A DNA stretch of 64,000 nucleotides, taken from assembly GCA_034667725.1 (NCBI GenBank), contig JAXDQS010000002.1:1-64000 (forward strand), read 5' to 3'. Positions 3,055 through 43,299 of the stretch are shown piece by piece. The first letter of the stretch is position 1. Each line of letters starts with the position of its first letter. This DNA comes from Thermoplasmata archaeon (GTDB lineage: Archaea > Thermoplasmatota > E2 > JACPAO01 > JAHFTW01). Made by a program: the position numbers and the translations under genes. The notes beneath the pieces were generated by a model. The model saw only the letters and a program-made list of their open reading frames with translations. It was not told the origin of the DNA and searched no databases.

Positions 3055-3095
3055 AGGCCGGCGACGCCAAGCCCCCACGAAAACCCGGCGGCTCG

Positions 3096-5716: not shown

Positions 5717-6178
5717 CTAGCGGCTGGACCTTAGGAACCACGCCATCTTCTCGTGGGCGGCCACCCGGCCGGTGAGGAAGTCCTGCGTGCCCGGGTCGTC
5801 GGCGACCTCCGGGATGCTCTCCCGAAGCCCCTGGATGACGGCCTCGTGGTCGGCCAGGAGGTCGGCCAGCATCCGGTCGGCGGACGGCGGCTTGCCGGCC
5901 TGGAACCGGATGGTCTTGGAGGCAAGGGCCTGGAAGTCGCCCGGCGCGTAGGCCCCGATGGCGCGCAGCCGCTCGGCGTAGGCGTCGAGGCTGTTCCACA
6001 TCTCGATGTAGTGCTCCTCGAACAGCTTGTGCAGCGTCATGAAGCCCGGGCCGGTGACGTTCCAGTGGTAGCCGTGGGTCTTGAGGTAGAGCGCGAAGGT
6101 GTCGGCCATGTGCGTCGTCAGGCTCCTGACCGAGGCGTTCTGGGGGCTCGCGACCGTCGAGGCGGTGGTGCGGGGCAT
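5717..6178 (-). CDS. dps: Dps DNA-protecting ferritin-like protein
   Basis: LKTHGYHWNVTGPGF, LHKLFEEHY, DAYAERLR, HEKMAWFL. Confidence 0.95.
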   Translation of the reverse strand: MPRTTASTVASPQNASVRSLTTHMADTFALYLKTHGYHWNVTGPGFMTLHKLFEEHYIEMWNSLDAYAERLRAIGAYAPGDFQALASKTIRFQAGKPPSADRMLADLLADHEAVIQGLRESIPEVADDPGTQDFLTGRVAAHEKMAWFLRSSR

Positions 6179-6262
6179 CGACGCCAAAGCCCGGTGAAGG
6201 GCCATAGGGCTTCGGGCGGCGGCAGGGGCGCGGTTTTGAGCAAGGACGGGCATCTGCGCCCC

Positions 6263-7111: not shown

Positions 7112-7233
7112 TGTAGGCCCGGACCTGAGCCCGTCCTGACCTCCATCCCTGGCGCCCGCCCTCCCGAGGGCCGGACGCCTACCAAGGGACGCCAGCGCAC
7201 CCGCGCGGCGGATACGGGTCGGAGCAAACACCA

Positions 7234-7707
7234 ATGGCACAAACCATCGAGACCGTCGTCGACGGCGGCAAGGCGAACGCGGGCCCCCTCGGCCCTGTCC
7301 TGGGCCCCGCCGGCGTCAACATGGGCAAGGTCGTCGCGGAGATCAACCTCAAGACGAAGGACTACGCCGGGATGAAGGTCCCGGTCAAGATCGTCATCGA
7401 CGACAAGAAGAACTTCGTCGTCGAGGTCGGCACGCCCCCGGTCAGCCAGCTGGTGCTGTCGAAGGCGAAGATCGAGAAGGGCGCCGGCACGCCGAACAAG
7501 GCGACGGTCGGCAACCTGACGATCAAGCAGTGCATCGAGATCACCCGCATGAAGGGCGACACGATGCTCGGGGCCAACCTCAAGAAGCGCGTCAAGGAGG
7601 TCGTGGGCACCTGCGTCAGCATGGGTGTGACCATCGAGGGCCGCTCCGCCAAGGAGATGTCGAAGGCCATCGAAGCCGGCGAGTTCGACGGCCAGCTCAA
7701 GGAGTAG
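7234..7707 (+). CDS. rpl11: 50S ribosomal protein uL11 (archaeal type)
   Basis: GGKA...GP.LGP.G, GMKVPVKI, GTPP, KEVVGTCVSMGVTIEG. Confidence 0.95.
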   Translation: MAQTIETVVDGGKANAGPLGPVLGPAGVNMGKVVAEINLKTKDYAGMKVPVKIVIDDKKNFVVEVGTPPVSQLVLSKAKIEKGAGTPNKATVGNLTIKQCIEITRMKGDTMLGANLKKRVKEVVGTCVSMGVTIEGRSAKEMSKAIEAGEFDGQLKE

Positions 7708-7738
7708 GGCCCCCACGTCCGGCGTCGAGCCCGGCACC

Positions 7739-7972
7739 GTGCGCGCCGAGCGGGTCATCCTCTGGATGTTCGTGCTGCTGTCCATCGCGACGGCGGCGGC
7801 GCTGTGGTGGTTCATCCGGATTTCCGAGCAGCGGCTGAGTCCCGACGACTTCGCGCGCGTCCGGCCGCGGCTCTACAGCGCGCTCGCCGGCGACCTGGCG
7901 GCGCCCGTCGTGGCCTGGTTCGTGCTGCGGGCGATCGGGCGGCGGCGCGCGGCGCGCTCGCAAGGTCCATGA
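7739..7972 (+). CDS. Small 2-TM hypothetical protein
   Basis: Two hydrophobic segments, high-GC3 codon use. Confidence 0.55.
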   Translation: MRAERVILWMFVLLSIATAAALWWFIRISEQRLSPDDFARVRPRLYSALAGDLAAPVVAWFVLRAIGRRRAARSQGP

Positions 7973-7995
7973 AGCCGCCAGCGGCATCCCGGGCC

Positions 7996-8355
7996 ATGCG
8001 TGTCCCGTTCGCCCTTGGCGCCGTCGTCCTGCTGTTGGCCGGCTGCGCCAGCGGCCCCAACCTCGACCTGTCGGGCGCGAAGCCGCTGGCTGCGGGCGGC
8101 TTCCTGGAGCTCAACCTCCGCATGGAGGCGGGCGACCGCATCAGCTACGACTGGTCGAGCGACGCGCCGGTGGAGTTCAACATCCACACCCACGGCGCGG
8201 GCGGCGTGCAGGACTTTGTGCAGGAGCAGGCGACGGCAAAGAGCAACCACTTCGAGGCGCCCGCGGACGGCGTCTATTCCCTGATGTGGGAGAACAAGGC
8301 CACGCGCTCCGTGACGGTGAGCTACGCGGTCAGCGGCCAGGCGACGCAGGCGTAG
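7996..8355 (+). CDS. Lipoprotein with GOLD-like beta-sandwich
   Basis: LLLAGC lipobox; VEFNIHTH...DGVYSLMWEN. Confidence 0.75.
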   Translation: MRVPFALGAVVLLLAGCASGPNLDLSGAKPLAAGGFLELNLRMEAGDRISYDWSSDAPVEFNIHTHGAGGVQDFVQEQATAKSNHFEAPADGVYSLMWENKATRSVTVSYAVSGQATQA

Positions 8356-8809
8356 CGGGCACGGGCGCGGACGAGGTCTTGCGGATCCAGGCCACCGCGA
8401 CGGCCGGGGCCACGATGCACCACAGCAGGCCGACGATGCCGATCTCCAGCACCACGCGCAGGCTGTCGCGGGCGCCCCCCCGCATGTCGTTCGACAGCAG
8501 CAGGAAGCTCATCTCGTAGACCAGGAGGTGCAGCATGAAGCCCGCCAGGCCGATGCCGAACGCCGCGAACACCTGGTTCTGGCTGCGCTGCTGGCGGACG
8601 AACCAGAACGCGGCCAAAAACAGCAGGATGGAGCCGCCGGCGAACATCGCGTCGGCGGCCAAGGAGTCGCCCCACACCGCGCCGAAGAACCGGAAGGACT
8701 CCTCGGTCGGCAGGGCGCCGTTCAGGCGGCCAGTGAGCCCGAGCCAGCTCGACACGCCCATGCAGGCGACGGCCCCGACGAAGTCCAAGGGGTGCAGCGG
8801 CCTTGCCAT
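8330..8809 (-). CDS. Hypothetical 4-TM membrane protein
   Basis: Four hydrophobic stretches; directly follows the DHH gene. Confidence 0.65.
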   Translation of the reverse strand: MARPLHPLDFVGAVACMGVSSWLGLTGRLNGALPTEESFRFFGAVWGDSLAADAMFAGGSILLFLAAFWFVRQQRSQNQVFAAFGIGLAGFMLHLLVYEMSFLLLSNDMRGGARDSLRVVLEIGIVGLLWCIVAPAVAVAWIRKTSSAPVPATPASPGR

Positions 8810-8824
8810 CGGGGCCTCCGTGAG

Positions 8825-9817
8825 CTATGCGAAGCAATAGACTTCGCGCAGGAACTCGGGGACGGCCCGGGTCGGGATCTTTGCGCCGGCGGAGTGGGGG
8901 TGCCCGCCGCCGACGATGCCGTGCTCCTGGGTGAAACCGGAGACGAAGGCGCCGAGGTTCATCGCCTCGCCGTCGGGCTCCAGGCCGGTGCGGCGCAGGC
9001 TGAGGCTCGAGAGGTTGTTGCGGCGGTTCAGCAGGACCGCGACGTGCGCGCCGGCCTCCTTGGCGACGTGCGACAGGGCGCGCGAGCCGAAGCCGAACAG
9101 GCTGGGCTTGCGGCGGCCGAACCGCAAAAGCGCGACGTTGTGCTTGAGCTCCATGCGCTCGCGGACGCGCTCCAGGGCGCGGTCCCAGCGGGCCTCGTTG
9201 ACCATCTGCAGGTAGCGGGAGCGGATTTCGGGCACCTCGCTGGGCCATCGGCCGGTGGCGAGGCGGCGGGCGGCCTGGGCGCGGAAGCGGTCGTCGTCGA
9301 CGCGGAAGCGCCACGCGAAGTCCAGCATCCGGGCCTCCTCCTCCATGCGGGCGGTCCCGACGGCGGCCTCGAAGTGGGCCAAGAGCGGGCTGGGGCAGTA
9401 TTCGATCAGGTCGGCAAGCGCGACGAGGTGGCGGTGGTCCTCGCCCAGGCCCAGGTGCTCGTAGGCGACTCCAGCGGCCGAAACACCTTGCTGCACGATG
9501 CCGTCCAGGTCGTCGTCCAAGGCGTCGAGCTGGAGCTCCGACTGCTCGTGGTGGTCGAGGTACGTCACGCGCTGGCGGGTCTTCGACTTGTCATTCAAGG
9601 TCTTGATGAGGCGCGGCGTGAGGCCGAGGTCCACCAGGAAGAACTCGTGGCTGCTGATGTCCTTGCGGAGCACGTCCACGGCCAGGTCGCCGCTTGCGAC
9701 GAACGAGACCTTCGTGGTGGGGTCCTTGGCGAGGAACAGGGCGGCAGACACGATGCCGTCCACGTTGCCGCGCGTCAGGAGGTGGGCTTTCCTGTCGTCC
9801 CGCTCGCGCAAGTCCAT
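8825..9817 (-). CDS. DHH/DHHA1 family phosphoesterase-like protein
   Basis: NVDG, VDLG, LDHH and GGGH..SAG motifs. Confidence 0.85.
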   Translation of the reverse strand: MDLRERDDRKAHLLTRGNVDGIVSAALFLAKDPTTKVSFVASGDLAVDVLRKDISSHEFFLVDLGLTPRLIKTLNDKSKTRQRVTYLDHHEQSELQLDALDDDLDGIVQQGVSAAGVAYEHLGLGEDHRHLVALADLIEYCPSPLLAHFEAAVGTARMEEEARMLDFAWRFRVDDDRFRAQAARRLATGRWPSEVPEIRSRYLQMVNEARWDRALERVRERMELKHNVALLRFGRRKPSLFGFGSRALSHVAKEAGAHVAVLLNRRNNLSSLSLRRTGLEPDGEAMNLGAFVSGFTQEHGIVGGGHPHSAGAKIPTRAVPEFLREVYCFA

Positions 9818-27099: not shown

Positions 27100-28977
<1,878 letters not shown>

Positions 28978-29275
28978 GGTCTTTCCTCACCTGCTGGCAA
29001 ATGGTGAGTCAGGACTTCTATAAGAGCATGATGCTGGCGGTCTGAGGTGTCCAGTTCCGCGGCTTCTGGCTGGCCTGGGCCTATGGCCCAGTAAGGCGTC
29101 AATGCATTGAACCAATCTATCGGCCCACGACGCCCTGGTCCCGGCCCCCTCCTTTTCAAGTCCAACCACCCAGTGAAACACCCCTCCACTCCTGGTGAAC
29201 TCAGCACAGCCGACAACAACGACTTCCGCGAACGCCGTCCAACGGGCTGTAACCCACCCCCGCCTGGACCTCGCC

Positions 29276-30079
29276 ATGAAGCGCTTCGTCGCCCTGCGCA
29301 TCCGCAGCCCTGATGCGTGCTACTCCCACCCGCAGTTGAGCATCCGGGCGTGCCGCTTCGACCTGGCCCCCTTCCGGGTCCGAGAGCAGCGGAAACTTGC
29401 CATCTGGAAGGCTCGGCCGGAGGCGCGGGCGGCCTGGGACTTCGACGCCGATTTCATGGAGGGCGCGGTCTTGGTGACGTACGGTCAATCCACGGACCAG
29501 TTGCACGCCGAGCTTCGACGGTACGGGTTGGGTTTGGCGGTCGACCAGGTCGTCGTGGACGCGCAGGAGTTCTTCCACCTCGACCCCAGCCTCACCAAAG
29601 CCGCCCTCAAAGCCGGATTCAAGGCGCCCCGCAGCGAAGCGGAGGCCGCCCGTGCCACAGCGAGGCTGTTCAGCAAGCACTGGAACCCGATCGTGGAGTT
29701 CAAGCTCGACTCCCACCCCGCCCACCGCTCCTCTTGGCCCGCCGATTATGGGGACGTCTTCGTGCGGGATGCCCAGAACCAGGTCCGTCTCACCAAGGGC
29801 GAGTATGCCGGGTGGACGGTCGTGGACGCGTACCTGGAAGGATACGAGTTCCAGGATTTGACCCACGACGCCCGCACCTTGGCAATGATCCTGGCTGAGG
29901 CGCCGAAGGCGCCGTGGCCGCCGCGCCCCGCCGCCCCCCTCTACCGGCGGTTGGACGCCTTCGATAAGTGGTTCACGGACGCCGAAGCCTGGCTCACCAC
30001 CGCCCAAGGCAAGCACGACCAAGTGCCCATCCTGCGAGACCAATTGTTGCGACTGCGCCGCGACCTGGAGGGCATCTAG
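29276..30079 (+). CDS. Inactive DEDDh exonuclease-like paralogue 1
   Basis: Aligns by eye with 30881-31648; Exo I DxE replaced by RxR (ALRIRSPD); retains DQVVVD and KGEYAGW. Confidence 0.7.
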   Translation: MKRFVALRIRSPDACYSHPQLSIRACRFDLAPFRVREQRKLAIWKARPEARAAWDFDADFMEGAVLVTYGQSTDQLHAELRRYGLGLAVDQVVVDAQEFFHLDPSLTKAALKAGFKAPRSEAEAARATARLFSKHWNPIVEFKLDSHPAHRSSWPADYGDVFVRDAQNQVRLTKGEYAGWTVVDAYLEGYEFQDLTHDARTLAMILAEAPKAPWPPRPAAPLYRRLDAFDKWFTDAEAWLTTAQGKHDQVPILRDQLLRLRRDLEGI

Positions 30080-30080
30080 C

Positions 30081-30881
30081 ATGCAAGCCCCACCCCCGAA
30101 GCGCTTCGTCGCAGTGCGCACCCGCAGTCCGGATGCCTGCTACACCCACCCGCGCTTGAACATCCAGGTCTGCCACTTCGACTTGGACCCCTTCCGCGTC
30201 GTTGCTGAACGCCGCCTCTCCTTGACGCCGACGGGGGCGTGGGGCATCAACGCCGACTTCCTGGAAGACTCGGTCCTCGTGACGTACGGCCAGGACCTGG
30301 CGTGGCTCAACACGCGCATGCGCGTCGGCGGCATGGACCTCCGCCCGGACCAGGTCGTCGTCGACGTCCAGAAGTTCTGGCACCTCGACCCGTCCCTCCT
30401 CATGGCGGCCAAGAAGGCCGGAATCAAGACGCCTAAGAGCGAGGTGGACGCGGCCCGCGTCATCGCGGAATTGTTCGCCAAGAAGCACGACCCACGCTTG
30501 CAGGCTCACCTTGCCCAGCACCCCGGCATGCGGGAAACCGACTACGAGGGCGCCTTCAGGCGGGACCGCCGCAACCTGATTCGCCTCCAGAAAGGCAAGT
30601 ACAAGGGCTGGAGCGTCCCGGACGCCTACCTGGACGGCTACGACTTCCAGGACCTCAACCAGGACGCCCGCAGCCTGGCCGCCGTCCTCGTCGAGGATCC
30701 GGCCTCCTATGCGGTGCCTGCCATGACGGCGCACCTGCAAGAGGTCGCCAAGGAGCTCGACGAGTGGATGGAGATGGCCACGGCTTGGATCCAGAGTCCC
30801 GCTGCCTTGCGCAAGCCGCTGCTCTACAGCGCCTTGCGGGGCCAGCTTATCCTGATCCGCCACACCCTGGGGGAATTCTGA
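30081..30881 (+). CDS. Inactive DEDDh exonuclease-like paralogue 2
   Basis: Closely similar to paralogue 1 (AVRTRSPD, DQVVVD, KGKYKGW, DAYLDGYDFQDL). Confidence 0.7.
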   Translation: MQAPPPKRFVAVRTRSPDACYTHPRLNIQVCHFDLDPFRVVAERRLSLTPTGAWGINADFLEDSVLVTYGQDLAWLNTRMRVGGMDLRPDQVVVDVQKFWHLDPSLLMAAKKAGIKTPKSEVDAARVIAELFAKKHDPRLQAHLAQHPGMRETDYEGAFRRDRRNLIRLQKGKYKGWSVPDAYLDGYDFQDLNQDARSLAAVLVEDPASYAVPAMTAHLQEVAKELDEWMEMATAWIQSPAALRKPLLYSALRGQLILIRHTLGEF

Positions 30882-31648
30882 TGGAGCTCCCCAAGGGCTA
30901 CCCGACGCGCTTCATCGCGTTGGACTGCGAGACCACCAGCATGGACCCCGCCACGGCGCGCATCGTGGAGATCTGCCTCGTCGAAGTCACCTACCCCCAC
31001 CTGGAGGAACGCAGCCGCTGGACTACGCTCATCAAGCCCGACGTCGAGTTCCCCAAGGAGGCGCAGGCGTACTGCGGCATCACCGAAGACCTGCTCCGCG
31101 AGGCGCCTTCGTTCCGGGACGTGGCGCGCCGCATCCAATGCATCCTGGAAGGTGCCGCCATCATCGCGTACAACGGCCGCCGCTTCGACGTGCCGCTCCT
31201 GCACCAGGAGCTCGTGCGCGCCGGATTCACGGGCCTGCCGGGCAACCAGGTCGTCATCGACCCCTACGAGCTCTTCCTCCAAGACTCCCCCCGCAACCTG
31301 ACCGCCGCCTTGCAGCACTACACCGGCTACACGCACCCCAAGGCGCACCGTGCTGAACCCGACGTCAACGCCATGCTCCTCGTCCTGGAGGAGCAATTGA
31401 AGAAGCGGAACCCCGCCGACGCCCTGCGCCGCGAAGTCCAACGACAACGCGTGCACCACTTCACTCAGGATCCGAACGGCACGGTGCGGTTCGCCTTCGG
31501 CAAACACCGCGGCCAACCCGCCCTCCACCACCCCGACTACCTCCGCTGGATGCTCAAGGAGCCGACCTTCGCCAACAGCCACCCCAAAGTCGTCGAACTA
31601 CTCGACGAATGGAAGGACACCGCCGATAGGCCCCCCGCAGCAGCATGA
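30881..31648 (+). CDS. DEDDh 3'-5' exonuclease (DnaQ/ExoX-like) with C-terminal FGKHRG domain
   Basis: DCETT, YNGRRFD, HRAEPD; FGKHRGQ...PDYLRW; TGATG coupling. Confidence 0.92.
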   Translation: MELPKGYPTRFIALDCETTSMDPATARIVEICLVEVTYPHLEERSRWTTLIKPDVEFPKEAQAYCGITEDLLREAPSFRDVARRIQCILEGAAIIAYNGRRFDVPLLHQELVRAGFTGLPGNQVVIDPYELFLQDSPRNLTAALQHYTGYTHPKAHRAEPDVNAMLLVLEEQLKKRNPADALRREVQRQRVHHFTQDPNGTVRFAFGKHRGQPALHHPDYLRWMLKEPTFANSHPKVVELLDEWKDTADRPPAAA

Positions 31649-31654
31649 GAAAAA

Positions 31655-32467
31655 CTAACGCGGAAGCGGGGTCGACTCCACCGCCGCCCTTAATTGCTCG
31701 TCCGTCAGGAAAACGGTGTCCCATAGAGTTCCCGCAGCAAACTGCCGTCCCACCCCACCTAAAAGACCCGCATGAAATAGACGAGCAAGTGCCCGATGGT
31801 ACCGTCGAGCTAGCGCTGTGATCTCCGTCCCCACTTGGTGGTAATAGGGATCGAGGCTTGCCCGGAAATCTTCCGGCGGTCTGATGCCCCGTTTGGAAGC
31901 CAAGTGATTCTCCAATTTGGTCATGATGTCTTCCGCTCCTTTGCCATCACTGGGAAGGCTCAGGACCCGGTTCAAATGGTAGTACCGACCCTCCCCCGCA
32001 AAAGAAGCCAACGCTTGAACGAAGAGGCGGCAATCTTCGTCCTGATGCATCCAGTCCAAGTCCTCACGAACGAGTCCTTGCCAATGGTGATTGAGGTCAG
32101 TTTGTGGGCCTGCTTTGCACTCCTCCACGAGCTTATCGTGGAGCTTAACAAGTTCGTGGTTGAACGACCGGATCTTGCCGCCACTTGGACGCCGTCCGTC
32201 CACATGCCAACGACGCAAAACTAACGCAATCTTGAGCATGCGTTCGAATCCGTAGGTGTAGAAGAGTAGCGGAGCTGTGTAGAAGTTGTTGGAGCCGGAG
32301 ATCTCTGCGGTTGCTCGATGTCCCTGATGGATTGCTCGCGAAACCGCTTCCAGTTCCAGAAGGATGCCGCCCCTCTCGGTGACGTCCGGCGTCCCCTTGG
32401 AGGGCCAACGTTCCTTCGTAGACGGCGGTGGAATTGGGGGCGACTGATGAAACGAGTCTGGGTGCAC
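31655..32467 (-). CDS. Hypothetical helical protein, possibly HEPN-like
   Basis: GFERMLK, NHELVKL, GRYY motifs; start uncertain. Confidence 0.6.
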   Translation of the reverse strand: MHPDSFHQSPPIPPPSTKERWPSKGTPDVTERGGILLELEAVSRAIHQGHRATAEISGSNNFYTAPLLFYTYGFERMLKIALVLRRWHVDGRRPSGGKIRSFNHELVKLHDKLVEECKAGPQTDLNHHWQGLVREDLDWMHQDEDCRLFVQALASFAGEGRYYHLNRVLSLPSDGKGAEDIMTKLENHLASKRGIRPPEDFRASLDPYYHQVGTEITALARRYHRALARLFHAGLLGGVGRQFAAGTLWDTVFLTDEQLRAAVESTPLPR

Positions 32468-32572
32468 AGCGGGTAGAGACCATTAGCCCTTCATGAGGAT
32501 GGAACAACGACTCGCCAGGCCGAACGCTCAACGAAGCCTGGGAATTTGGGCCGCACAGAACAGTTGCCCAGC

Positions 32573-33580
32573 CTAGGCCGCCTCAACCTGCATGCGTTTT
32601 CGCCACCATGCTCGAAGGTCACGGCTGAGAGCGAGACCGAACATCACAACCAGGAACACCGCTACGGCAATCAAGGCGCTGAGCGTCTGAAGTTCCGATT
32701 GCAGGGAAGGGGATGACTCCTGCGACCTCAGCCATGTCCATCCACTGCCAAGAGTCGAGGGCAGGTACAAAGCGCATAGAAGTGACCAAGCCAGGAAAGC
32801 CGCGATGCAGAATCCGACCCTAAGACTGCGGCGCGGAATCAGCTTGGCGAGAAGCGGGCGCCGCCTCAGGAAACCCGTGGGCAACACGATTACCACCACC
32901 GTGCCTGCGACCATCGCCCACTCTCGCACATCGTTCAACTTGATTTGGCGAGTCCGGACCTGGCCTTCCAGCCACCAAGCTGAAACAAGTGTGAAGGCGA
33001 CGAGAACTGCGAACATGAGGATGGTGTTGCGCTGCCGCTGAAACGCTTTCTTGACGTTTGCCCGCGCTTCTTTCAGCACCTCGTCATACGACTGCACCGG
33101 AGTCGTATCCTTCTTGCGAGTGTCAATGAACTTCTGCTTATGGACAATCATGGTCGCTTCAAGGGTCTCGGACATGTCGCGCTGTAGCGTTCTGGAAGAA
33201 TACATCCAGCGCGAGAAGGCGCGACCCGCAAGGAAGACCGACCCCACAAAGATCGCGAAGGCCACAAGTTGTGGGGTCGACTCGGCGTCACGGGCCATAA
33301 TCATGAAAATGAACGAGAGGAGCGCCATTCCAGCCCACCAGAGCGCGTTTGGCCCAGCATTGGAGTACGCGGCCTCATGGGCTTGAAGGCGGCGCAGGGT
33401 TTGCGCTCGATATGCATGGCTCACAGGGTCGTTCCGTGCTTCAGCTGACGCAGTCGCCTGCTCCAGCTGGAGGAGCTCGCCCGCGCGCCGATGCTCCTTC
33501 AGGCCCGCAAATTGCCACAGCGCGGCCCCCGCGGTCACAACAGCCGCAATGGTCTGCCAATGCCCGGTCGTCAACTCCAC
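32573..33580 (-). CDS. Multi-TM hypothetical membrane protein
   Basis: About 7 hydrophobic segments; GTG 33580 supported by TTTTATT ~25 nt upstream and by the start of the paralogous pseudogene. Confidence 0.75.
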   Translation of the reverse strand: MELTTGHWQTIAAVVTAGAALWQFAGLKEHRRAGELLQLEQATASAEARNDPVSHAYRAQTLRRLQAHEAAYSNAGPNALWWAGMALLSFIFMIMARDAESTPQLVAFAIFVGSVFLAGRAFSRWMYSSRTLQRDMSETLEATMIVHKQKFIDTRKKDTTPVQSYDEVLKEARANVKKAFQRQRNTILMFAVLVAFTLVSAWWLEGQVRTRQIKLNDVREWAMVAGTVVVIVLPTGFLRRRPLLAKLIPRRSLRVGFCIAAFLAWSLLCALYLPSTLGSGWTWLRSQESSPSLQSELQTLSALIAVAVFLVVMFGLALSRDLRAWWRKRMQVEAA

Positions 33581-34151
33581 GGAGGCCAGCACCCCTACAT
33601 CCAATAAAAGGGCAAACGCGGTGGAATGCACACCGCCCAGCCGGCTTAGGTCAAATGGTCCGCAATCCAACCTTAAAGTCTTGCCGAAACGGAGTAGACC
33701 GTTGGAGTAAAAAGAGGCCTAAGAACATGGAGGGGCCAGTTCGACTGACCGCAACCCTCGCCCCGAGCCTAGGAAACTTTGAGGCGGGGGTTGCGGCCGT
33801 GTATGCTCTGGCGGATTCCGCCCCCAAGCTACTTGGAGGCGGGCCGCCAGACGGTATCCCCATCGGGCGGTCCTAACTGGGACCGAGGATGTAGGATGCC
33901 CAAGAAATCCCTTCCGAAACGATTCAAGGTCAGAGAGCCTGCTCGCTCCTGTGGAACTCTTGGCCACTCACAAGCCCCCCCGAAAACATGGGGTGAGGGG
34001 GCTTCAATCCCACAATGTTTGTGGATTAGGGCTATTAACCCTTCCGATTTGGCCCGCAAGCCGCGTGGGTCGCTGAAAAGCATCTCACCGCAGCCGGAGC
34101 CTACCCTGCATGGTCCCCCAAGTTCTTGCATTCCGGGAGGAGGGGGCACAA

Positions 34152-34694
34152 GTGAATAGCGGGCCAAGGACCCTTTCGGAGCAAGAGCGCAAGGACTTGG
34201 TGCTGTTCCTGCTCAGCAAACGGTCCATCAAGCCGGTCGATGCAAAAGCAGAGGCCTCCGATGGAGGGCACAGCCTTCTCCATACGGCAATGTCCATTCT
34301 GGATGCCAAACTAGAGAAGAAAGGGCTTGATCTGGGGTACGACTTCAACCAGTATCTCTTGTACCCAAGTGACTCTAGGCTGAACCGTGATGTGTTCCAA
34401 CTTTACCACAGCGAACTAATCGAGAACGAAGACGGTGAACCGGAACGGCAGTTGCCAATTCGGCACATTGAAGTCACGCCAGCAGGTAAGAATCATATCC
34501 GATTTTTTGGCGTGGAGTCAAGTCTGGCTCGTGCCCTAGCAGGAAAGGAGATTCGGCTTAGCGAAGTTACAGCCATTTGGCAAGACTTGCTTAGCAAGCC
34601 GATGGCAGAACTCCTTAACCTAGAAATCAAGGCCCGCAATCGCGAGGCCTCCATGAAAGAATTTGAAGATGCCGTCAGCACTCTTATAGACTAG
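34152..34694 (+). CDS. YwgA/SocA(Panacea)-like winged-helix protein
   Basis: LGYDF..Y..YP.DSRL..DV..L...ELI and VTPAGK; GGAGG upstream of GTG. Confidence 0.55.
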   Translation: MNSGPRTLSEQERKDLVLFLLSKRSIKPVDAKAEASDGGHSLLHTAMSILDAKLEKKGLDLGYDFNQYLLYPSDSRLNRDVFQLYHSELIENEDGEPERQLPIRHIEVTPAGKNHIRFFGVESSLARALAGKEIRLSEVTAIWQDLLSKPMAELLNLEIKARNREASMKEFEDAVSTLID

Positions 34695-34713
34695 ACAAAT
34701 TGGGGGGGAGTAG

Positions 34714-35835
34714 ATGCTAGTCGGTCGTGGAGCAGGCATTGTCCTCGCCCTTAGCCAGTACGATCGCGATGGGACACTCCTCAACCGAGCTGCTTCCGAC
34801 CTTCGGAAAAAGGACGGCAAGAGCCGCTATGACATCATTGAATCAAGTGCGTCTGGATTATCCATGAGGTTTTCGGAGACTTACCTCTCTAAATTCTCCA
34901 CGGTGCAATGGGGTGCAAGGCTGGGCTCGGCCCAAGGCGCGGAGAGCCGTCTAAAGGCCTTGAAAGCCGTAATGCGTAGCATCACAATGAAGATTCACAT
35001 CTTAGACGGAGTTCTCGCCGTTGAATTTCACGTGGATTCTACGGTAGCCCCTCTAGTGACAATCATCGACCGAACACCCATAGTTGGCCCTGGGCTCCGC
35101 GGGGAAATGGAAACACACTTCCTCGATTATGTGATGGACGTGACAGCGCTCGTACATGAAACAAGTGACAAGAAGTTCGTGTCGTTGAACGTTTTTAGCA
35201 TCGTCTCCGCATTCTCGTTTTCTGGAACTGGCGCCGTAGCAAGTGAGAATGCTCTCTTTCAAGAGATTCGGCAGAAGTTGCGGGACCAACACCACGACAA
35301 CATCGACAAGGTCGAGCGCTTTGAAAGCGAGGTGCGTACCCGCAAGCGGCGCTATCTTATCCGCAGGAAGTCCAAGTATCGCATAGAATGGCAGTTCCCG
35401 AGCACTTTGCAAAAATGGATTACCGAAGAAATCGAGCGGCAAAGAAGTCACCACTGGCAGGCCATTTACCTTGCGGGATGCATGAGAAATTGCCGACAAC
35501 GGAAACACAGCACGCTGCGTCGGCTGGCAGATGACATGGATCACTATGCCCCCCTCTATGAGGTGAGGCGGGAAATGCTGGGATCTCTCCGAGACCAAAT
35601 CGGCTTTCAACTGGCCACCAAGGGCCTTCTCGCGGGCTTCGTCCTTTTCGCGGTTGCTTTCCTTCTTGCCATCAAAGCCGCTCCGTTTGACAACTGGTCC
35701 GCACGCTATGCAACGATTGGCTTCATTCCTTTAGTTGGATGGGTTGGTTACTGGTATGTGATGCATGGCATTACTAGGAGCTTGGAGTTGGAAATTGGGA
35801 AAACATCCATGCTTCACAGTCGGGCAAAACAGTAG
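34714..35835 (+). CDS. Hypothetical protein with long helices and 2 C-terminal TM (CorA-like topology)
   Basis: 373-aa ORF with GGAG SD-like element; two C-terminal hydrophobic segments. Confidence 0.7.
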   Translation: MLVGRGAGIVLALSQYDRDGTLLNRAASDLRKKDGKSRYDIIESSASGLSMRFSETYLSKFSTVQWGARLGSAQGAESRLKALKAVMRSITMKIHILDGVLAVEFHVDSTVAPLVTIIDRTPIVGPGLRGEMETHFLDYVMDVTALVHETSDKKFVSLNVFSIVSAFSFSGTGAVASENALFQEIRQKLRDQHHDNIDKVERFESEVRTRKRRYLIRRKSKYRIEWQFPSTLQKWITEEIERQRSHHWQAIYLAGCMRNCRQRKHSTLRRLADDMDHYAPLYEVRREMLGSLRDQIGFQLATKGLLAGFVLFAVAFLLAIKAAPFDNWSARYATIGFIPLVGWVGYWYVMHGITRSLELEIGKTSMLHSRAKQ

Positions 35836-36019
35836 TCCCTAGCCTATTCAGTGGGGAGCCGCATGGATGACTGGCGACAGCGCTGAACCACGGCGCAGGG
35901 CGAAGCAAAACGCTACAGAGATTACCGGCGCGGCACCAAGGCGCCGACTGCTACACTCCGCTGCGCTGTCGAGTGATGTGCCCCAAAGGCGCGTATGGCT
36001 CGTTCATGCCCTTGCTTGT

Positions 36020-36132
36020 TCCGGTTCAGGAGTTAGCCCGCACGGCGGTGCTCCTTCAACCTGCGAATTGCCACAGCGCGGCGACGGCCACCACAGCCGC
36101 GATGACTTGCCAATGCCCGTAGTGAGTTTCAT
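36020..36132 (-). pseudogene. Degraded paralogue of the 5' end of 32573-33580
   Basis: MKLTT/HWQVIAAVVAVAALWQFA/LKEHRRAG* versus VELTTGHWQTIAAVVTAGAALWQFAGLKEHRRAGE; two frameshifts and a stop. Confidence 0.8.
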
Positions 36133-36185
36133 GCTGAGTTACCTCCATGCTGACAATGCAATGACTTAGGCGGACAGGAACTATT

Positions 36186-37802
36186 CTACGGGGCAATGAC
36201 CGGCTTACTTGGTAGGCTCCAGTACCCGCGGTACCACTGCTGAATCACAGGATTCTGGCAAAGACATCCTTCAGCGGGCTCGCCAATCGGGATCTCAGCG
36301 CTCGTCGACTTCCAGCGCAGACTATCTCCTTGCACCCGATTAGGGACCTGCTGGTAGCCAATCGCTCGCAGGATGATTGCCGACGTGGCATGGATTCCCA
36401 CGATTACCGGCACGTGCGGAACGGGCGGAGCTGCAATCCGGTCGTTGCCAACTTGGGCGCCTTGTCCGCAGATTCCCTCGATGAGTTTCTTCAACGGTTG
36501 CCCGAGGAATTGGGATATGTACGTGTCCGAGAATCCTTTGGCGCGTTGCAAGTCGTCCAAGTCAGCTTTGGTCAATGTCTTGGATGGGTCTTCGAGGTAG
36601 GCTCGAACGCGCGCCAAGGGCCAGCCTACCTGACGTGCCTTGAACTCCATGGCAGTTCCAGGATCATCAGTCTTCGAGTGGTACTGGCAAGCCATGCATG
36701 CTTGGTCGCCAATGCGGTGAATAGAGTAGCCCCATGAGTTGAGCGCGTCTCCGCTGTCGGTCCATACATTCATGACCTGCTCGTGGAGCCCGAACTGGAT
36801 GTCACGGCGGGTTACCGCTGAGTCGACCGCCGCCACCACTAGGCGACGGGGGCGAGCGCCATCCAAGTCGGTCCAGCCGAGGTAGGTGAGCGGTGGCGCC
36901 AGGTATTCGATTTGGAGTAGTGGCAGGATGGCCCAGCCTGGTGAACCGGCACTTAGCCCCAGTGCGTGTCGCGGCTCGAAGCGGGTCGGCATCGCGGCTG
37001 GATAGACGGGGGCCGGAGCCGGGAATTGAACTTGGAGTAAGGGATGGTGCGAAGCAAGGACGTGACGTGCAACCTGCGGTTTGTATTGCCCGACTGCCTT
37101 CTGGGTAGCCAGCAAGTAGCGCTCCATGTTGCCTTGGTCGATGAACTCGTGATCGACCAGGTCGATTCGCCCAGCTAGATTTGGCAGGGTGGTAAGAGCG
37201 TGACAGATTGCTTGGCCGACGGCGCCCACGCCGACCAACGTGACGTCGATGATGGGGGTAGCCGCGTCTAAGGCGGGAGCATCGGGTGGGCTGGAGCCTC
37301 CGCGTCCAGTGATAAGGTCCCAGGTGGCTTGCCCATCCAAGAGGCGAATGCCTTCGATTGTGTCCTTGAACGCGACGTTGAACACGTGTTGAGCGGCCAG
37401 GCTTGCGGCGTAGAGAGCTGCCAGTACGTTGTTGCCTTGGCAGCCGGGTGGCTGGGTTGTTGAGATGGCTGCGGCCCAAGACTGGAAATCTGCGTGTATG
37501 TGGGGCACGGCTACTGTGGAGTCTTGCAGCACGACAGTCATGTCTGGAGTGACGCCCGGCTGGAATTGGACTTGATTCACCAGACTTCCTACGTGAGCTT
37601 GGCGAGCGGGATCTTGAACGCCTTCGACGGTCAAGTTGCGGAAGGTTCGGCCAAGGATGCCGATGGCAAGGCGGGCTTGTTCCAAGCGGATTGGGTTGTT
37701 CTCGTCGACCACCACGTGGACCTTGAAGTTCTGGCAAATGGCTTCGACGTTGGCACGGGGAGCGCGCGTCATTGCTAGCGTGCCTGCGGTTACGCGGTTC
37801 AT
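36186..37802 (-). CDS. E1-like ThiF/UBA enzyme with N-terminal inactive adenylation-like region (BilD-like)
   Basis: GVGAVG, DHEFIDQGNMERY, AVDS...R, CMAC, ICG (candidate catalytic Cys), CLC; ATGA overlap with JAB stop. Confidence 0.9.
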   Translation of the reverse strand: MNRVTAGTLAMTRAPRANVEAICQNFKVHVVVDENNPIRLEQARLAIGILGRTFRNLTVEGVQDPARQAHVGSLVNQVQFQPGVTPDMTVVLQDSTVAVPHIHADFQSWAAAISTTQPPGCQGNNVLAALYAASLAAQHVFNVAFKDTIEGIRLLDGQATWDLITGRGGSSPPDAPALDAATPIIDVTLVGVGAVGQAICHALTTLPNLAGRIDLVDHEFIDQGNMERYLLATQKAVGQYKPQVARHVLASHHPLLQVQFPAPAPVYPAAMPTRFEPRHALGLSAGSPGWAILPLLQIEYLAPPLTYLGWTDLDGARPRRLVVAAVDSAVTRRDIQFGLHEQVMNVWTDSGDALNSWGYSIHRIGDQACMACQYHSKTDDPGTAMEFKARQVGWPLARVRAYLEDPSKTLTKADLDDLQRAKGFSDTYISQFLGQPLKKLIEGICGQGAQVGNDRIAAPPVPHVPVIVGIHATSAIILRAIGYQQVPNRVQGDSLRWKSTSAEIPIGEPAEGCLCQNPVIQQWYRGYWSLPSKPVIAP

Positions 37803-38287
37803 GGGTGGACCTTGACTAGTGCGCTCAATTCTTCTGATTCGAGTGTTCGCCCCCAGCCGGAACGGTCTCGGATGTAGCCCACGCAGTGCGGCCAATTCTT
37901 GAGTCCGAACCGTCCGAAGCAAGGCACAACGATGGAGATGCTGCCTTCTTGCGTGACTGTATCGTCAGCGTCGTCGGTGTCACTGTGAAAGGCATGGCCA
38001 GGATGCGTGTGAATCTGGATTGCGATTAGTCTCCCCGTGTCGGCTAAGTCTTGGTGGATTGGAATCAGGCTCCCAGGAGAGAGACGGACGCTAAGTGCTG
38101 TGGCGTGCTGCTCGGGCACGTACACCATGTCCAAGAGCAGAGTCTTGGAGTCTATGGGTTTTCCAGCGAGCAGTACCAGGCACTCGACGCCTTGGCTTCC
38201 GGCTTGCTGCAAAACGTTTTGGGCCGCTTGGAGGGCGTCAGATCCGACTCGGAATTCCATTATTGACTTCAAGTCGACTGGTTTCAT
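37799..38287 (-). CDS. JAB/JAMM metalloprotease (BilC-like)
   Basis: N-terminal E (GVEC) and QIHTHPGHAFHSDTDD = HxH-x5-SxxD. Confidence 0.92.
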   Translation of the reverse strand: MKPVDLKSIMEFRVGSDALQAAQNVLQQAGSQGVECLVLLAGKPIDSKTLLLDMVYVPEQHATALSVRLSPGSLIPIHQDLADTGRLIAIQIHTHPGHAFHSDTDDADDTVTQEGSISIVVPCFGRFGLKNWPHCVGYIRDRSGWGRTLESEELSALVKVHP

Positions 38288-38752
38288 CTAGTCCCTCTTG
38301 AGAAGTGAGACAACGTTGTTCACGATTCCGACTGGACCAAAGTTCGGGAGATGCCTTACGGACTCCCATGACAGTGCATCACCATAATCCTCATGGAATT
38401 CCCTTGTCCCTTCGACGCAGAAATATGCGCCTTGCCCAGGTCGTTTCGCATCATCCCAAACGTGGTTCTCCCCTCCTTCCCTGAGCAGGAAAGGAGCGAC
38501 CTCTTTCGAGGCCAGTCGCTTTGTGAAATCTGGTGTGCATGGGATTGCGCGAGGCGGCCGGTGCGGCCAATCCGTGGCGTCGAAGAGGATTCCCAGCTTG
38601 GCGTTCCGCTCCGAGTTGAGGACATGGACGGCCAAGTACGGGTACGCCACGTACACAACCTGCCAGTTGTGCTGGCTTGCAGAAGCACTTTGAATGGGGT
38701 CTGCGAACGAGGGGAAGAAGACGCGCCCCAGTTCGCCTGGGAAGACGGGCAC
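38288..38752 (-). CDS. E2-like CEHH-type protein (BilB-like)
   Basis: DWPHRPP (E2 YPxxPP-like) and CVEGTREFH = CxxxxxE[YF]H signature. Confidence 0.8.
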   Translation of the reverse strand: MPVFPGELGRVFFPSFADPIQSASASQHNWQVVYVAYPYLAVHVLNSERNAKLGILFDATDWPHRPPRAIPCTPDFTKRLASKEVAPFLLREGGENHVWDDAKRPGQGAYFCVEGTREFHEDYGDALSWESVRHLPNFGPVGIVNNVVSLLKRD

Positions 38753-38754
38753 GA

Positions 38755-39015
38755 CTAGGCCTTCTTGCCTGGCTTGTTGGACAAGATGATGGTCGCCTTT
38801 TCCGGGATGCCGGAATCCTTCCAGGACTTGCTCACGTCCACCGGCTTCCCATTGAAGGTAACATCGTACAAGGACAAGTCGTCCTTGTTTCCAGTGTCAC
38901 TCAAGGCCTTCTTGACAGCTACCTGGATTTTCTGGTTCTCGGGGTAGGAATCCTTGACGGCTTGGCCGTTGACGCTGATAGTGGCTTCGAATTTCTTGTC
39001 TGGTTTCTCGGGCAC
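38755..39015 (-). CDS. Ubiquitin-like beta-grasp protein (DUF2604/BilA-like)
   Basis: ISVNGQ...ENQKI..AVKKAL.DTGN...NGK.VD...W...GI...TIILS; first gene of the E2-JAB-E1 operon. Confidence 0.8.
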   Translation of the reverse strand: MPEKPDKKFEATISVNGQAVKDSYPENQKIQVAVKKALSDTGNKDDLSLYDVTFNGKPVDVSKSWKDSGIPEKATIILSNKPGKKA

Positions 39016-39234
39016 GGTCCCATCCGCTCCGTTGCCACGTTGCCAAGCAGCAACGGGCGCAATTTGGCACCGCCAGCGGTTCTACATGAACGCTTCTCGC
39101 CCGTTCCGCTTCCCCTTGTAATAACCTGATGGAGCGCCCCCATTTCTTGCAAGGCAGTAGGCGATGTGCGCGGAAGCTGCTTGGACTGCTTGCGTGTTCA
39201 GCATGGATATATCCGGCCCATACCTTGGAGCGCT

Positions 39235-41001
39235 GTGATTCGCAGGCTTGCTTCAATCGCGCTCGTAGTCACGCTCACCGCAGCTGCCTTCCCCGTCGAC
39301 GCTGGCTTGCGTGAAGGCACCTTCGGCGCGAACGAACCCGCCCGCGAGTCCTTCGGCTTCGGACCCGACGGCGAAATCATTGGCAGCCCAGGCGACTTCG
39401 AGCTCTTCGCCGCCGCCAACGCAATCTCTGCGGGGCTCCAATGGGATCCAGCCTTCGACCCCTGCATCAGCTGCCTCTACCCACCCGCCTCCCTTCTGGC
39501 CCACTACCCGAACCCCGTCCAGCCTGCCCCGACGGCGTTTGACCAGGCGCGCATGATCCACCGCGACGTGCCCACGTGCAGCGGCATTGCGAGTGGACCC
39601 GGTGGCGGCGCCGCATGCAATCCCACCGTCGAGTCCTGCGACCCGTCAGACCCGCACAGCGTCGATGTGCGCGACTACAGCATCGACCAAATGTGGGACG
39701 GCAACCCCGACATCAACGTCAGCGACGAGAGTTGCCCCACGCCGTGCGACGAGGACTGGTCCGGCCCCCCACTCGCCTCCTCCGAAACCTGCGAATGCAT
39801 CCCACCCGATTCCTGCGCGCCTGACGAATGCGATGAGCCTGGCCTGTTCTTCGAGAACGACCCCGGCGAACTATGCACTCCGGATTGCACACCAGCCCAA
39901 GAATGCCTGCCTTTCCCGGTGCCATGCAGTCCCGTGACGTCGTGCCTCCCACCAGAATGTGGCAGCCCAGGAATCCTAGAAGCCATCCTGCTGCTCGTCG
40001 TCAATGGACCCTGCACGCCCGACTGCTCGCCAACCTCCGAATGCGTTCCGAATCCATGCGACTCTTCCGGGTGCCTTCCGCCACCGTGCGACGAGGAAGG
40101 AATCCAGTTGAGCGACACCGACGACCCGTGCACGCCCCACTGCGCTCCAGCACAAGACTGCCCCAGCAAGTGCGCCCCGCCGCTCTGTGGAGAGGCCGAC
40201 ACGCCCGTGTTCTGGCCGGACGAGAACCACGACTGCGTCCCTGAGTGCAGTCCCGTCCAAGACTGCACGCCACCTTCTTGCGAAGAGCCGGGAATCGGAT
40301 TCAGCACGCAGGACGACGAGCCTTGCACGCCCAACTGCTCTCCCATCCAGAGCTGCGTGCCTCTACCACCGCCTTGTGAGGAGGGCATCAACACCAACCC
40401 AGTCACGGACGAAGACCCGTGCATCCCACAATGCAACATCCAGGGCTGCTTGCCGGTCCCGGTTCCTCCGCAATGCGAAAACGACGGCCTTGCGGGACTC
40501 GATAGCGACGTCTGCATCCCGAACTGCACGCCAGCCGCCGCATGTGTTCCCCCAACCTGTGGTCCGCCCACTCCAGTCGCCTGCGATCCTTGCGCCAACA
40601 ACTCGTGTCCCGAACCTGTGTGCCTCGCCGCGCCTCAACTCTGCGAGGGCAGCGACCCCAGCCCTTCTTCGCCCACCTCACCGAGCTACTGCGGCATCTC
40701 CCGCTGCATGACCGTCTCCGGCACCCTCCGCCTGCCCTTCCAAGACCCCACAGCCCCAAGCAGCCCGACAGCTTGGTACGACTGCCGCGTCTGCTGGTAT
40801 GACATCCACGACGACGACAGCGGCCAAGACGACGAATGGCTCGGCCACGGCTACACCACCAATGAAGGCTACTTCGAGATCGAGGTCAACAACGACGACC
40901 TCTGCGCCACAAGGGACCCGTTTTACTCGTGCAGCGACCAAGACATCTACCTGGTCGTCTGGGCCTGCTGCAACTTCGCCAGATTCTGCCCACGGTCTTG
41001 A
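39235..41001 (+). CDS. Secreted Cys/Pro-rich repeat protein, possibly C-terminally truncated
   Basis: Signal peptide, seven P-x-x-C...CxPxCxPxxxC repeats, then a beta-rich segment (YDIHDDD...TTNEGYFEI); GATATAT upstream. Confidence 0.75.
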   Translation: MIRRLASIALVVTLTAAAFPVDAGLREGTFGANEPARESFGFGPDGEIIGSPGDFELFAAANAISAGLQWDPAFDPCISCLYPPASLLAHYPNPVQPAPTAFDQARMIHRDVPTCSGIASGPGGGAACNPTVESCDPSDPHSVDVRDYSIDQMWDGNPDINVSDESCPTPCDEDWSGPPLASSETCECIPPDSCAPDECDEPGLFFENDPGELCTPDCTPAQECLPFPVPCSPVTSCLPPECGSPGILEAILLLVVNGPCTPDCSPTSECVPNPCDSSGCLPPPCDEEGIQLSDTDDPCTPHCAPAQDCPSKCAPPLCGEADTPVFWPDENHDCVPECSPVQDCTPPSCEEPGIGFSTQDDEPCTPNCSPIQSCVPLPPPCEEGINTNPVTDEDPCIPQCNIQGCLPVPVPPQCENDGLAGLDSDVCIPNCTPAAACVPPTCGPPTPVACDPCANNSCPEPVCLAAPQLCEGSDPSPSSPTSPSYCGISRCMTVSGTLRLPFQDPTAPSSPTAWYDCRVCWYDIHDDDSGQDDEWLGHGYTTNEGYFEIEVNNDDLCATRDPFYSCSDQDIYLVVWACCNFARFCPRS

Positions 41002-41026
41002 TTGTTTGCCGAGGTCGGGAGAACCC

Positions 41027-42027: not shown

Positions 42028-42504
42028 CTACGGCGCCGCGCACACCTTGGCGAAGCGCAGCACCCGTTCGCCGAGCAGGTAGCCGGGCTGGACGACGCGC
42101 GACACGTGGCCGGGCGGCACGCCGTGGGCCGGCTCCTGCGCCAGCACCTCGTGGCGGGCGGGGTCCACCTTCTCGCCGACCGTCCCGAGGCGCACCAGGC
42201 CCTCGCGTTCGGCGAGGCGGTCGAACTCGCGGGCCAGCATCACGACGCCCTCCGACACCGGGCCCGGGTGGGCCTCGGCCTGGTGGGCGGCCATGTGCGC
42301 CAGCTCCAAAAGCGGCAGGAAGGACTCCAGGACGCGGGCCTTGTTGCGCTCGCGCTCCAGCTGCGCGTCGCGGTGGACGCGGCGTTGCAGGTTGTCGTAG
42401 TCGGCCCGGCAGCGGGCCAGGCGGTCGCGCAGGTCCGCCACCTCCGGCGCCATCTCCGGCGCCGCATCTGCCGCCTCTGCCGCCTCCTCCCCCTGCTCCT
42501 CCAT
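42028..42504 (-). CDS. grpE: Nucleotide exchange factor GrpE
   Basis: RADYDNLQRR, DPARHE, QPGY.LGERVLR.AKV. Confidence 0.92.
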   Translation of the reverse strand: MEEQGEEAAEAADAAPEMAPEVADLRDRLARCRADYDNLQRRVHRDAQLERERNKARVLESFLPLLELAHMAAHQAEAHPGPVSEGVVMLAREFDRLAEREGLVRLGTVGEKVDPARHEVLAQEPAHGVPPGHVSRVVQPGYLLGERVLRFAKVCAAP

Positions 42505-42582
42505 GGCAGCCGGCAGCGGGGCCTGCGAAAAAGCCTGATGGGAAAGCGCGGGGCCCAAATAGCGGGGCGGGGGTCGGCGCGC

Positions 42583-43299
42583 ATGCGCCTGGCCGCTGTC
42601 CTGCTCGTGGCCTGGAGCCTCCTTCCGCTCGCGTGGGCGTTGCCGGCGGCCGGCGACTGCCACCTGCCGCCCGCCGGCCACTGCGACGGCGTCGGCCAGC
42701 CGCGGATGCCGTCCTGCACCAACACCATGGCGCCGCCGGCGTCGTGCACCACCTCCACGGACAACAAGGACGACGAGGTGCGCATCGCGCTGCCCGACCT
42801 GGACGTGGAAGGCATGGCGACCCCGCGCGGGCTGCCGGCGCACCCGTCCGCCTACGAGACCGGCACCCTGGTGGACCTGACCCTCACGTTCGACTGGAGC
42901 GGCGAGGCGGCGGCCGACGTTGAGGTCTACTTCGCGGCCCGCCCCGGCCTCGACTGGGTCTCGGCGGGCGGCGCCACCGTCGGCTCGCCCCGGTTCTTCC
43001 GCTACACCCTCAACCTGACCCCGGACGAGCCCGCCACCGTGGCCTGGACGGCGCGGATCTGGGACAACGCCACCGGCCCCGCCCTGCTGGACTTGGCGGT
43101 GGCCTACCACGACGCGCGCGGCGTCGAGCAGCACGGCGAGGCGACCGTCCTGCTGGAGGTCGTCGACCGGCTGCCCGGGCCGCCGGCGGTGCCGTTCTGG
43201 CAGGACCCGGCCTTCATCCTGATGCTCGGCATGGTGATCGGGCTGTCCGTGGGCTACGTCCTGTTCGGCAAGCCGCGGCAGGGTCCGAAGCGGTCTTGA
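42583..43299 (+). CDS. Secreted Ig-like protein with C-terminal TM anchor
   Basis: Signal peptide; C-terminal hydrophobic helix and basic tail. Confidence 0.7.

Follow-up and report, generated by a model that had tools for sequence, protein, structure and literature searches.

Bil (bacterial ISG15-like) systems are BilABCD operons for a ubiquitin-like protein (Ubl), a conjugating enzyme (E2), a JAB/JAMM peptidase and an activating enzyme (E1), and the papers that define them treat them as bacterial. Type I, exemplified by the operon of Collimonas sp. OK412 (Millman et al. 2022), has been shown experimentally to act against phages through Ubl conjugation and tags a phage tail-fibre protein (Millman et al. 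2022; 10.1101/2023.09.26.559546). The described type II operons (CEHH or "6C" operons) are bacterial and mostly from Rhizobiaceae; we used the BilABCD operon of Ensifer aridi TW10 (PDB 8TYX-8TZ0) as the reference for this type and an operon on Rhizobium etli plasmid p42a as a second one. Here we examine an operon at positions 36186-39015 of the first 64,000 nucleotides of contig JAXDQS010000002.1, from a Thermoplasmata archaeon (this whole stretch is referred to below as the window). An original prediction made from the sequence had proposed that these genes form an antiviral conjugation system acquired by an archaeon. Our best explanation, to which we give a probability of about 0.72, is that they encode a complete Bil-type Ubl conjugation system without a ligase (E3), closest to type II, on an acquired island in a Thermoplasmatota archaeon.

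Gene order and junctions

Four minus-strand open reading frames (ORFs) follow one another head to tail in the order Ubl-E2-JAB-E1 (Table 1), an order shared with both Bil types, including the R. etli p42a operon, and with a related archaeal operon discussed below. The TAG stop of the Ubl gene is separated by 2 nt from the GTG start of the E2 gene, the ATG of the JAB gene abuts the TAG of the E2 gene, and the JAB stop and E1 start overlap in an ATGA. Read directly from the ORF map, these junctions mark the operon as translationally coupled, and the arrangement of abutting and overlapping genes that had been predicted is found as described. A longer, TTG-initiated E1 frame of 578 amino acids (aa) was ruled out as the true start because three homologs all begin at an MNRV-type start. 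That all four proteins each match their cognate Bil component, in Bil order, is far beyond chance. The operon as first observed is confirmed, and sequence and fold analysis establishes the identities of its four proteins, the intact catalytic residues, the tight gene coupling, the foreign composition and the patchy distribution.

Table 1. Features of the operon and its surroundings (window positions).
Feature	Position	Strand	Description
Ubl (BilA-like)	38755..39015	minus	86 aa, single beta-grasp domain, precursor ending ...SNKPG83-KKA
E2 (BilB-like, short-loop CEHH/DUF7665-type)	38288..38752	minus	154 aa, candidate catalytic Cys112
JAB/JAMM metallopeptidase (BilC-like)	37799..38287	minus	162 aa, E35 / H93xH95 / S102xxD105 site intact
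Multidomain E1 (BilD-like)	36186..37802	minus	538 aa, ThiF domain, C445 insertion, Cys4 zinc site
TTATTA, candidate archaeal TATA-like box (weak)	39119..39124	minus	104 nt upstream of Ubl start
Lower-GC variable island with operon	28990..41010		between dnaK and grpE region

Ubl, peptidase and activating enzyme

The Ubl matches Pfam DUF2604 (3.7e-9) and TUG-UBL1, both over their cut-offs, and is 35% identical to the R. etli p42a Ubl, which is annotated as DUF2604 in its own operon. Its AlphaFold (AF2) model (predicted local distance difference test score [pLDDT] of 85) has beta-grasp topology, and the top Foldseek match is the E. aridi Ubl (BilA, 8tyx_A; template modeling [TM] scores of 0.79/0.82, 31% identity), followed by ISG15, SUMO, ubiquitin and Caldiarchaeum ubiquitin. 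Family, model topology and nearest fold all bear out the beta-grasp nature of the small protein, a point on which the prediction had been staked beforehand. As in type II Ubls, a single beta-grasp domain of DUF2604 type leads to a conserved glycine with no more than 9 extra residues, here Gly83 followed by KKA. Three homologs with an overall identity of 47-65% all end in an unchanged SNKPGKKA tail, whereas type II tails, such as G-AAG in R. etli and G-A in E. aridi, are described as non-conserved (10.1101/2023.09.26.559546). Type I Ubls differ further in having two ISG15-like beta-grasp domains. The PADLOC BilA model did not match the Ubl and no NCBIfam model matched the Ubl or the E2, and for this reason automated defence finders may miss the operon.

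The JAB protein matches the E. aridi deubiquitinase (BilC, 8tyx_B) at 3.6e-11 in phmmer, where Glu35 lines up with the mutated catalytic residue E33, and its H-x-H-x6-S-x-x-D site has spacing identical to that of E. aridi BilC. It also matches the type I PADLOC BilC model (2.6e-8) and falls just below the cut-off of Pfam Prok-JAB. E35, H93, H95, S102 and D105 are invariant in the homolog from a related metagenome-assembled genome (MAG), G025, and align to E. aridi BilC, so that the predicted JAMM protease with an intact metal site holds residue by residue.

The E1 matches its E. aridi counterpart (BilD, 8tyz_A) at 7e-21 in phmmer, in two stretches covering residues 103-525, with C445 aligned to the catalytic C417 and both zinc cysteine pairs aligned as well. 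Its motifs comprise G-x-G-x-x-G at 191-196, an adenylation motif (D217...N225-x-x-R228), D327 and a Cys4 zinc site formed by CxxC at 369/372 and CxC at 513/515; 4 homologs all have the catalytic and zinc cysteines. Matches to PADLOC BilD (2.9e-15), to ThiF (4.5e-13) and to the R. etli "E2 ligase fold family C protein" (25% identity, E 1e-20) agree with this identity, and the next-best structures, UBA5 and the SUMO E1, were matched over the nucleotide-binding core only. The protein is thus a multidomain E1 with a Cys domain and a Cys4 zinc site, as in type II, and all the elements that had been predicted for it could be read, the candidate cysteine falling at the C417 position. Its N-terminal extra region, judged by position and a partial alignment, appears to be inactive-adenylation-like. 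Searched by sequence, the Ubl, JAB and E1 each have the cognate E. aridi protein as their best PDB relative, although identities of type II proteins to those of the window are just 19-35%.

Archaea commonly use a different Ubl pathway, SAMP/UbaA, which has no E2 and no E1 Cys domain and whose modifier is also a sulfur carrier. The operon could in principle be such a module for sampylation, or a ThiS/MoaD-type sulfur-carrier module, since the E1 core is a ThiF/MoeB-family adenylation domain and the beta-grasp modifier, ThiF-type E1 and JAMM protease are all shared. We regard this as scarcely credible: NCBIfam MoeB/ThiF models, whose cut-offs are 159-647 bits, align with residues 187-259 of the E1 only and score 17-29 bits there, the operon includes its own E2 and an E1 Cys insertion aligned to BilD C417, and the Ubl lies nearest BilA, ISG15 and SUMO with no ThiS/MoaD among its top matches. 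A second, canonical and full-length ThiF/MoeB gene is present elsewhere in the genome (C12:57129-57818), and the operon E1 is therefore an extra one.

The ubiquitin systems of Caldiarchaeum and Asgard archaea also combine a beta-grasp modifier, a ThiF-type E1 and a JAMM protease, but they use a canonical UBC E2 and a RING E3, whereas the E2 here is BilB-like, the operon contains no E3 gene and no RING match was found among the neighbouring genes. The separation from SAMP/UbaA and from Asgard/Caldiarchaeum systems that had been drawn from the sequence thus stands on the dedicated E2, its BilB-like character, the Cys insertion and the lack of an operon E3. Bub (6E/DUF6527) and type II CBASS (cyclic oligonucleotide-based antiphage signaling system) Cap2/Cap3 are further examples of prokaryotic E1, E2 and JAB machinery in conflict contexts. 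The JAB protein matches Citrobacter BubCD weakly (0.013) and family scans found no DUF6527, and the operon has neither an E1-E2 fusion nor a CD-NTase; Cap2-like PADLOC models match the ThiF core only, at 1e-8 or weaker.

A compact E2 without the second histidine

The E2 is the most divergent component of the operon. The predicted CxxxxxEFH motif is present as C112-x5-E118-F-H120, and the BilB identity is carried by the family profile and the fold. Alone, the protein did not recover BilB from PDB sequences with phmmer; it matched the type I PADLOC BilB model at 5.7e-6 and reached 16.9 bits against Pfam DUF7665 (cut-off 27). A profile of 36 representatives of its family matches the E. aridi E2 (BilB, 8tyz_C) at 1.8e-12 and R. 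etli BilB with an hhalign probability of 98.6%. The AF2 model (pLDDT 94.3, no region with pLDDT <50) has as its top three PDB matches in Foldseek the E. aridi BilB chains (TM 0.67-0.70), with eukaryotic E2s ranking after them (TM <=0.5, E 0.14 or weaker). The protein therefore shares with type II E2s homology to BilB, a UBC-like fold and an invariant catalytic-cysteine position, and C112, G115 and H120 are invariant across the family. Its nearest ESM-Atlas clusters, short proteins of 145-231 aa that carry DUF7665 and/or Metal_CEHH, are 94-100% bacterial. Of the family models named with the prediction, DUF2604 and ThiF gave matches and Prok-JAB did not reach its cut-off, while Metal_CEHH was matched by 15 of the 36 E2-family members (DUF7665 by 7 of 36).

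It is also in the E2 that the evidence begins to weigh against a Bil-type reading. In E. aridi the motif consists of C138, E144, H146 and H151 (Chambers et al., 10.1101/2023.09.26.559546); E144 and H146 are described as structural, and His151, which adjoins the catalytic Cys, as catalytic and conserved in both Bil types (10.1101/2023.09.26.559546). Asp125 occupies the His151 position here, as HMMER and hhalign alignments agree, and across the 36 family members the equivalent column holds D, E, A, R, S or P and never His. The first three residues of the CEHH motif are thus present (C112, E118 and H120) and the second His is not; His97 and Tyr123 are conserved instead. The long disordered loop of type II E2s, which Chambers et al. 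propose as a target-recognition element (10.1101/2023.09.26.559546), is missing as well: this E2 has 154 aa against ~205, an alignment gap of ~18-25 residues opposite BilB of R. etli and E. aridi, and a PP-to-Cys spacing of 45 (39-50 across the family) against ~64 in type II BilB. In an exhaustive profile search the short-loop branch proved rare, with 38 clusters among 1.84 billion representatives.

An E2 impaired by the loss of the His next to its catalytic Cys would be expected if the operon were a decaying or non-functional relic of an acquisition, and a degraded copy of a membrane-protein gene just downstream of the E1 gene does speak for local decay and rearrangement. We nevertheless consider a relic very improbable. 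None of the four ORFs is disrupted, homologs with identities as low as 45-61% retain all the other catalytic residues, and the absence of the His is common to the whole E2 family, which retains H120 together with His97 (31/36), Tyr123 (29/36) and Arg133 (34/36); Trp129 is also conserved. Because these residues are kept while the His151 position is never His, the alignment indicates a putative active-site arrangement that is different but selected.

Since one defining motif residue was looked for and is not there, we classify the operon, on the strength of its sequence, as a type II Bil variant rather than a strict member. The proposed match to BilABCD therefore stands in part: by gene order and the identities of all four proteins the operon is nearest to type II, and the E2 departs from it in the fourth CEHH residue and the long loop. 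Type I is more distant, as its E2 keeps the Cys and a His at +13 and not the Glu at +6 and His at +8, the reverse of what is seen here.

Host, relatives and possible role

The window begins inside an archaeal small subunit (SSU) rRNA gene (RF01959, 83.9 bits), whose 5' end lies at 1-116 on the minus strand at the contig edge, and the contig that carries both this 16S fragment and the operon is 264 kb long, in a MAG that is 90% complete with 0.7% contamination. The island is flanked by dnaK and grpE (27100-28977 and 42028-42600), which were found in all five congeners searched, with protein identities in the genome search of 82-88% and 63-70%, respectively. The archaeal 16S, the quality of the MAG and the conserved flanks together exclude bacterial contamination of the region, and the host is, as predicted, a Thermoplasmatota archaeon. 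Composition sets the island apart from this background: GC content falls from ~70% to 53-60%, the island as a whole spanning 53-66%, and GC at third codon positions (GC3), at 0.92-0.97 in dnaK, grpE and the pair of host genes beside grpE, reaches only 0.63-0.78 in the Bil genes. The dnaK-grpE gap measures 13 kb here and 2.75, 4.7 and 11.5 kb in three congeners (L008-L010), none of which has any of the island genes in the gap; in two other congeners dnaK and grpE are unlinked. The cargo is unrelated from species to species, and the interval is a variable region in the genus. With its foreign GC and GC3 and its unshared cargo, recent horizontal acquisition of the operon, also part of the prediction, is well supported. 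A provirus or plasmid origin of the island was rejected for lack of evidence, as searches of the island found no integrase and no PHROG virus hallmark apart from a DEDDh exonuclease.

Several other features of the region deserve mention. Three tandem homologous genes on the plus strand (29276-31648) contain internal direct repeats ~805-820 bp apart; the first two have no family matches, and the last encodes an intact RNase_T/DEDDh exonuclease (PADLOC PDC-S48, 1.3e-24; Cas-associated DEDDh model, 2.4e-25; phrog_192, 4e-43). A pair of plus-strand genes for proteins of 194 and 373 aa (34110-35835; GC 52%, GC3 ~0.58-0.59) converges on the end of the E1 gene and has no significant match in Pfam, NCBIfam or PHROGs, the second gene giving a marginal PADLOC PDC-M01B match (0.0026). 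Just past the E1 stop, ~90 bp at 36028-36119 are 76-84% identical to 33471-33566, the 5' part of a gene for a 365-aa membrane protein on the same strand (32573-33670), so that the copy and the membrane gene bracket the convergent pair; this suggests that a rearrangement or insertion separated the membrane gene from the operon. Directly upstream of the Ubl gene and divergent from it, a plus-strand gene (39166-41001) encodes a Cys- and Pro-rich protein of 611 aa in which units containing D-P-C-T-P-x-C recur; it has no family match and includes DNA repeat family D2 at 40002-40434. A 95-nt tRNA-Leu(CAG) call at 27139-27233, antisense to dnaK and overlapping its 3' end, may be spurious.

Relatives of the operon proteins are few. 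Word-indexed searches of 5.8 billion proteins returned 5 relatives of the E2, 3 of the E1 and 1 of the Ubl, and of 401 Thermoplasmatota genomes sampled, just 2 carry the E2 family, the host MAG and G025. The latter, a Thermoplasmatota MAG of the same GTDB family and a different genus, carries the same Ubl-E2-JAB-E1 operon, again at lower GC, next to 2-oxoacid:ferredoxin oxidoreductase genes. It stands divergent from a gene for a 283-aa CARF-wHTH (Csa3-like) protein (L004 [G025:C149], 2804-3655, minus strand) that matches Pfam HFX_2341_N and DUF6293_C and PADLOC CARF3 (2.4e-20), and Csa3 weakly; the host genome of the window operon yielded no homolog of this protein. Searches of plasmids by tblastn found Rhizobium type II Bil only (26% identity), and tblastn against phages gave no match. 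No match was obtained with the query P0017 against plasmids, with the E1 alignment against genome contigs, with the E2 alignment or P0017 against metagenome contigs, or in a scan of viral contigs for relatives. The largely bacterial ESM-Atlas clusters nearest to the E2 and the Rhizobium operons as the only plasmid matches point to a probable bacterial source.

A PADLOC BilD search of the phylum recovered a different operon from a third MAG, G126, of another family, in which Ubl (91 aa), E2 (163 aa), JAB (191 aa) and E1 (541 aa) genes (L016 [G126:C17], 6152-9003, minus strand; BilD 1.1e-18) adjoin a DUF3800/PDC-M04A-like gene. Its Ubl ends in GGA, its E1 is 22% identical to that of the window, and its E2 has a His 13 residues past the Cys and none at +8, the pattern described for type I. 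Because the G126 operon differs from the window operon, Bil-like systems probably entered Thermoplasmatota more than once.

Conserved residues and homology to the E. aridi proteins allow a mechanism to be proposed. The JAMM peptidase would cut the precursor Ubl behind Gly83 and so release the invariant KKA; the E1, through its active adenylation domain, would adenylate Gly83 and then form a thioester at Cys445 in the Cys insertion; and the Ubl would pass to Cys112 of the compact E2, which would attach it directly to lysines of target proteins without an E3. The JAB protein may also reverse conjugation. We infer the thioester chemistry, the tail trimming and the biological role alike, and judge it very probable that the operon encodes a functional Ubl-conjugation cascade.

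What the cascade is for is a harder question, and we lean only slightly towards antiviral defence. The analogy with type I Bil leads us to propose that its most likely role is defence against archaeal viruses through tagging of a virion or replication protein. Other pointers to defence are the patchy (2/401), foreign and accessory nature of the locus in a variable dnaK-grpE gap, the neighbouring DEDDh exonuclease with its PADLOC PDC-S48 and Cas-associated DEDDh matches, the CARF-wHTH regulator adjoining the G025 copy, and the TIR, caspase and DUF3800 genes adjoining the R. etli relative.

The same cascade might instead serve protein modification in stress response or regulation, or act on the island's own behalf in mobile-element conflicts. 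Attachment of a Ubl to phage structural proteins, which the prediction had attributed to Bil, is documented only for a type I system; the authors who define type II call its targets and role unknown and suggest that it may be a stress-response pathway (PMC11601603). Most other island genes have no defence annotation, and in the congener G005 the dnaK-grpE gap holds methyltransferase, MFS and PAP2 genes, a metabolic and membrane cargo for which we rejected the notion of a dedicated defence hotspot. We nonetheless think a non-antiviral role unlikely, given that patchiness and foreign composition fit accessory conflict genes better than housekeeping ones, that the G025 and R. etli relatives adjoin CARF-wHTH and TIR and caspase genes, and that the sister type I system is antiphage.

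The defence reading of a Bil-type operon has further points to answer. Archaeal operons of Bil type, this one included, are known as sequences alone. The CARF link comes without a visible signal source, as two models found no Cas10 in G025, G000 or G126, and a connection to cyclic oligoadenylate (cOA) through type III CRISPR stays speculative. Expression signals for the operon are weak: the predicted TTATTA is present upstream (39124-39119, coding strand) and is weak evidence by itself, no intrinsic terminator-like site was found within 35800-39400, and the sole nearby sigma-70-like match (38954-38982) is on the plus strand inside the Ubl gene and therefore cannot drive the operon. At the G025 locus, a TTTATATT box lies ~75-80 nt upstream of the Ubl gene, which also has a GGGGGAG Shine-Dalgarno-like run; the 94-bp intergenic region that the operon shares with the CARF-wHTH gene holds this TTTATATT box.

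A more far-reaching version of the Bil reading, which we consider improbable, is that the short-loop E2 branch is a third Bil subtype with a re-wired active site, established in Thermoplasmatota as an antiviral system and controlled in at least one lineage by a CARF-wHTH protein. If so, His97, Tyr123 and Arg133 would stand in for the missing His151, target choice would be independent of the long loop, and a nucleotide second messenger would turn on the tagging of proteins from archaeal viruses with the Ubl.

A Bil-like system in an archaeon is not unprecedented, because two surveys already report rare PADLOC "ISG15-like" calls in archaea, one in a single Halococcus strain and the other in one archaeal taxon; a defence survey of 7747 archaeal genomes does not mention Bil in its main text. 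The suggestion that such systems are uncharacterised in archaea is accordingly right as to characterisation, of which there is no case, and incomplete as to occurrence. The CEHH-derived short-loop E2 without the second His, the KKA tail, the Thermoplasmatota host and the CARF-wHTH neighbour appear to be undescribed.

Complete E1-E2-Ubl-deubiquitinase cascades outside eukaryotes bear on the origin of ubiquitin signalling and on whether ISG15-like antiviral tagging is a pan-domain strategy. Bil has been studied in bacteria only, and its archaeal occurrences have been rare automated hits; the locus described here provides a contamination-free archaeal case, and a related MAG and a third one add, respectively, another copy and a different Bil-like operon. 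Its compact E2, without the His presumed to assist catalysis and the loop presumed to pick targets, amounts to a natural experiment on which parts of BilB are essential, and the operon gives experiments on Ubl-based archaeal defence a concrete place to begin.

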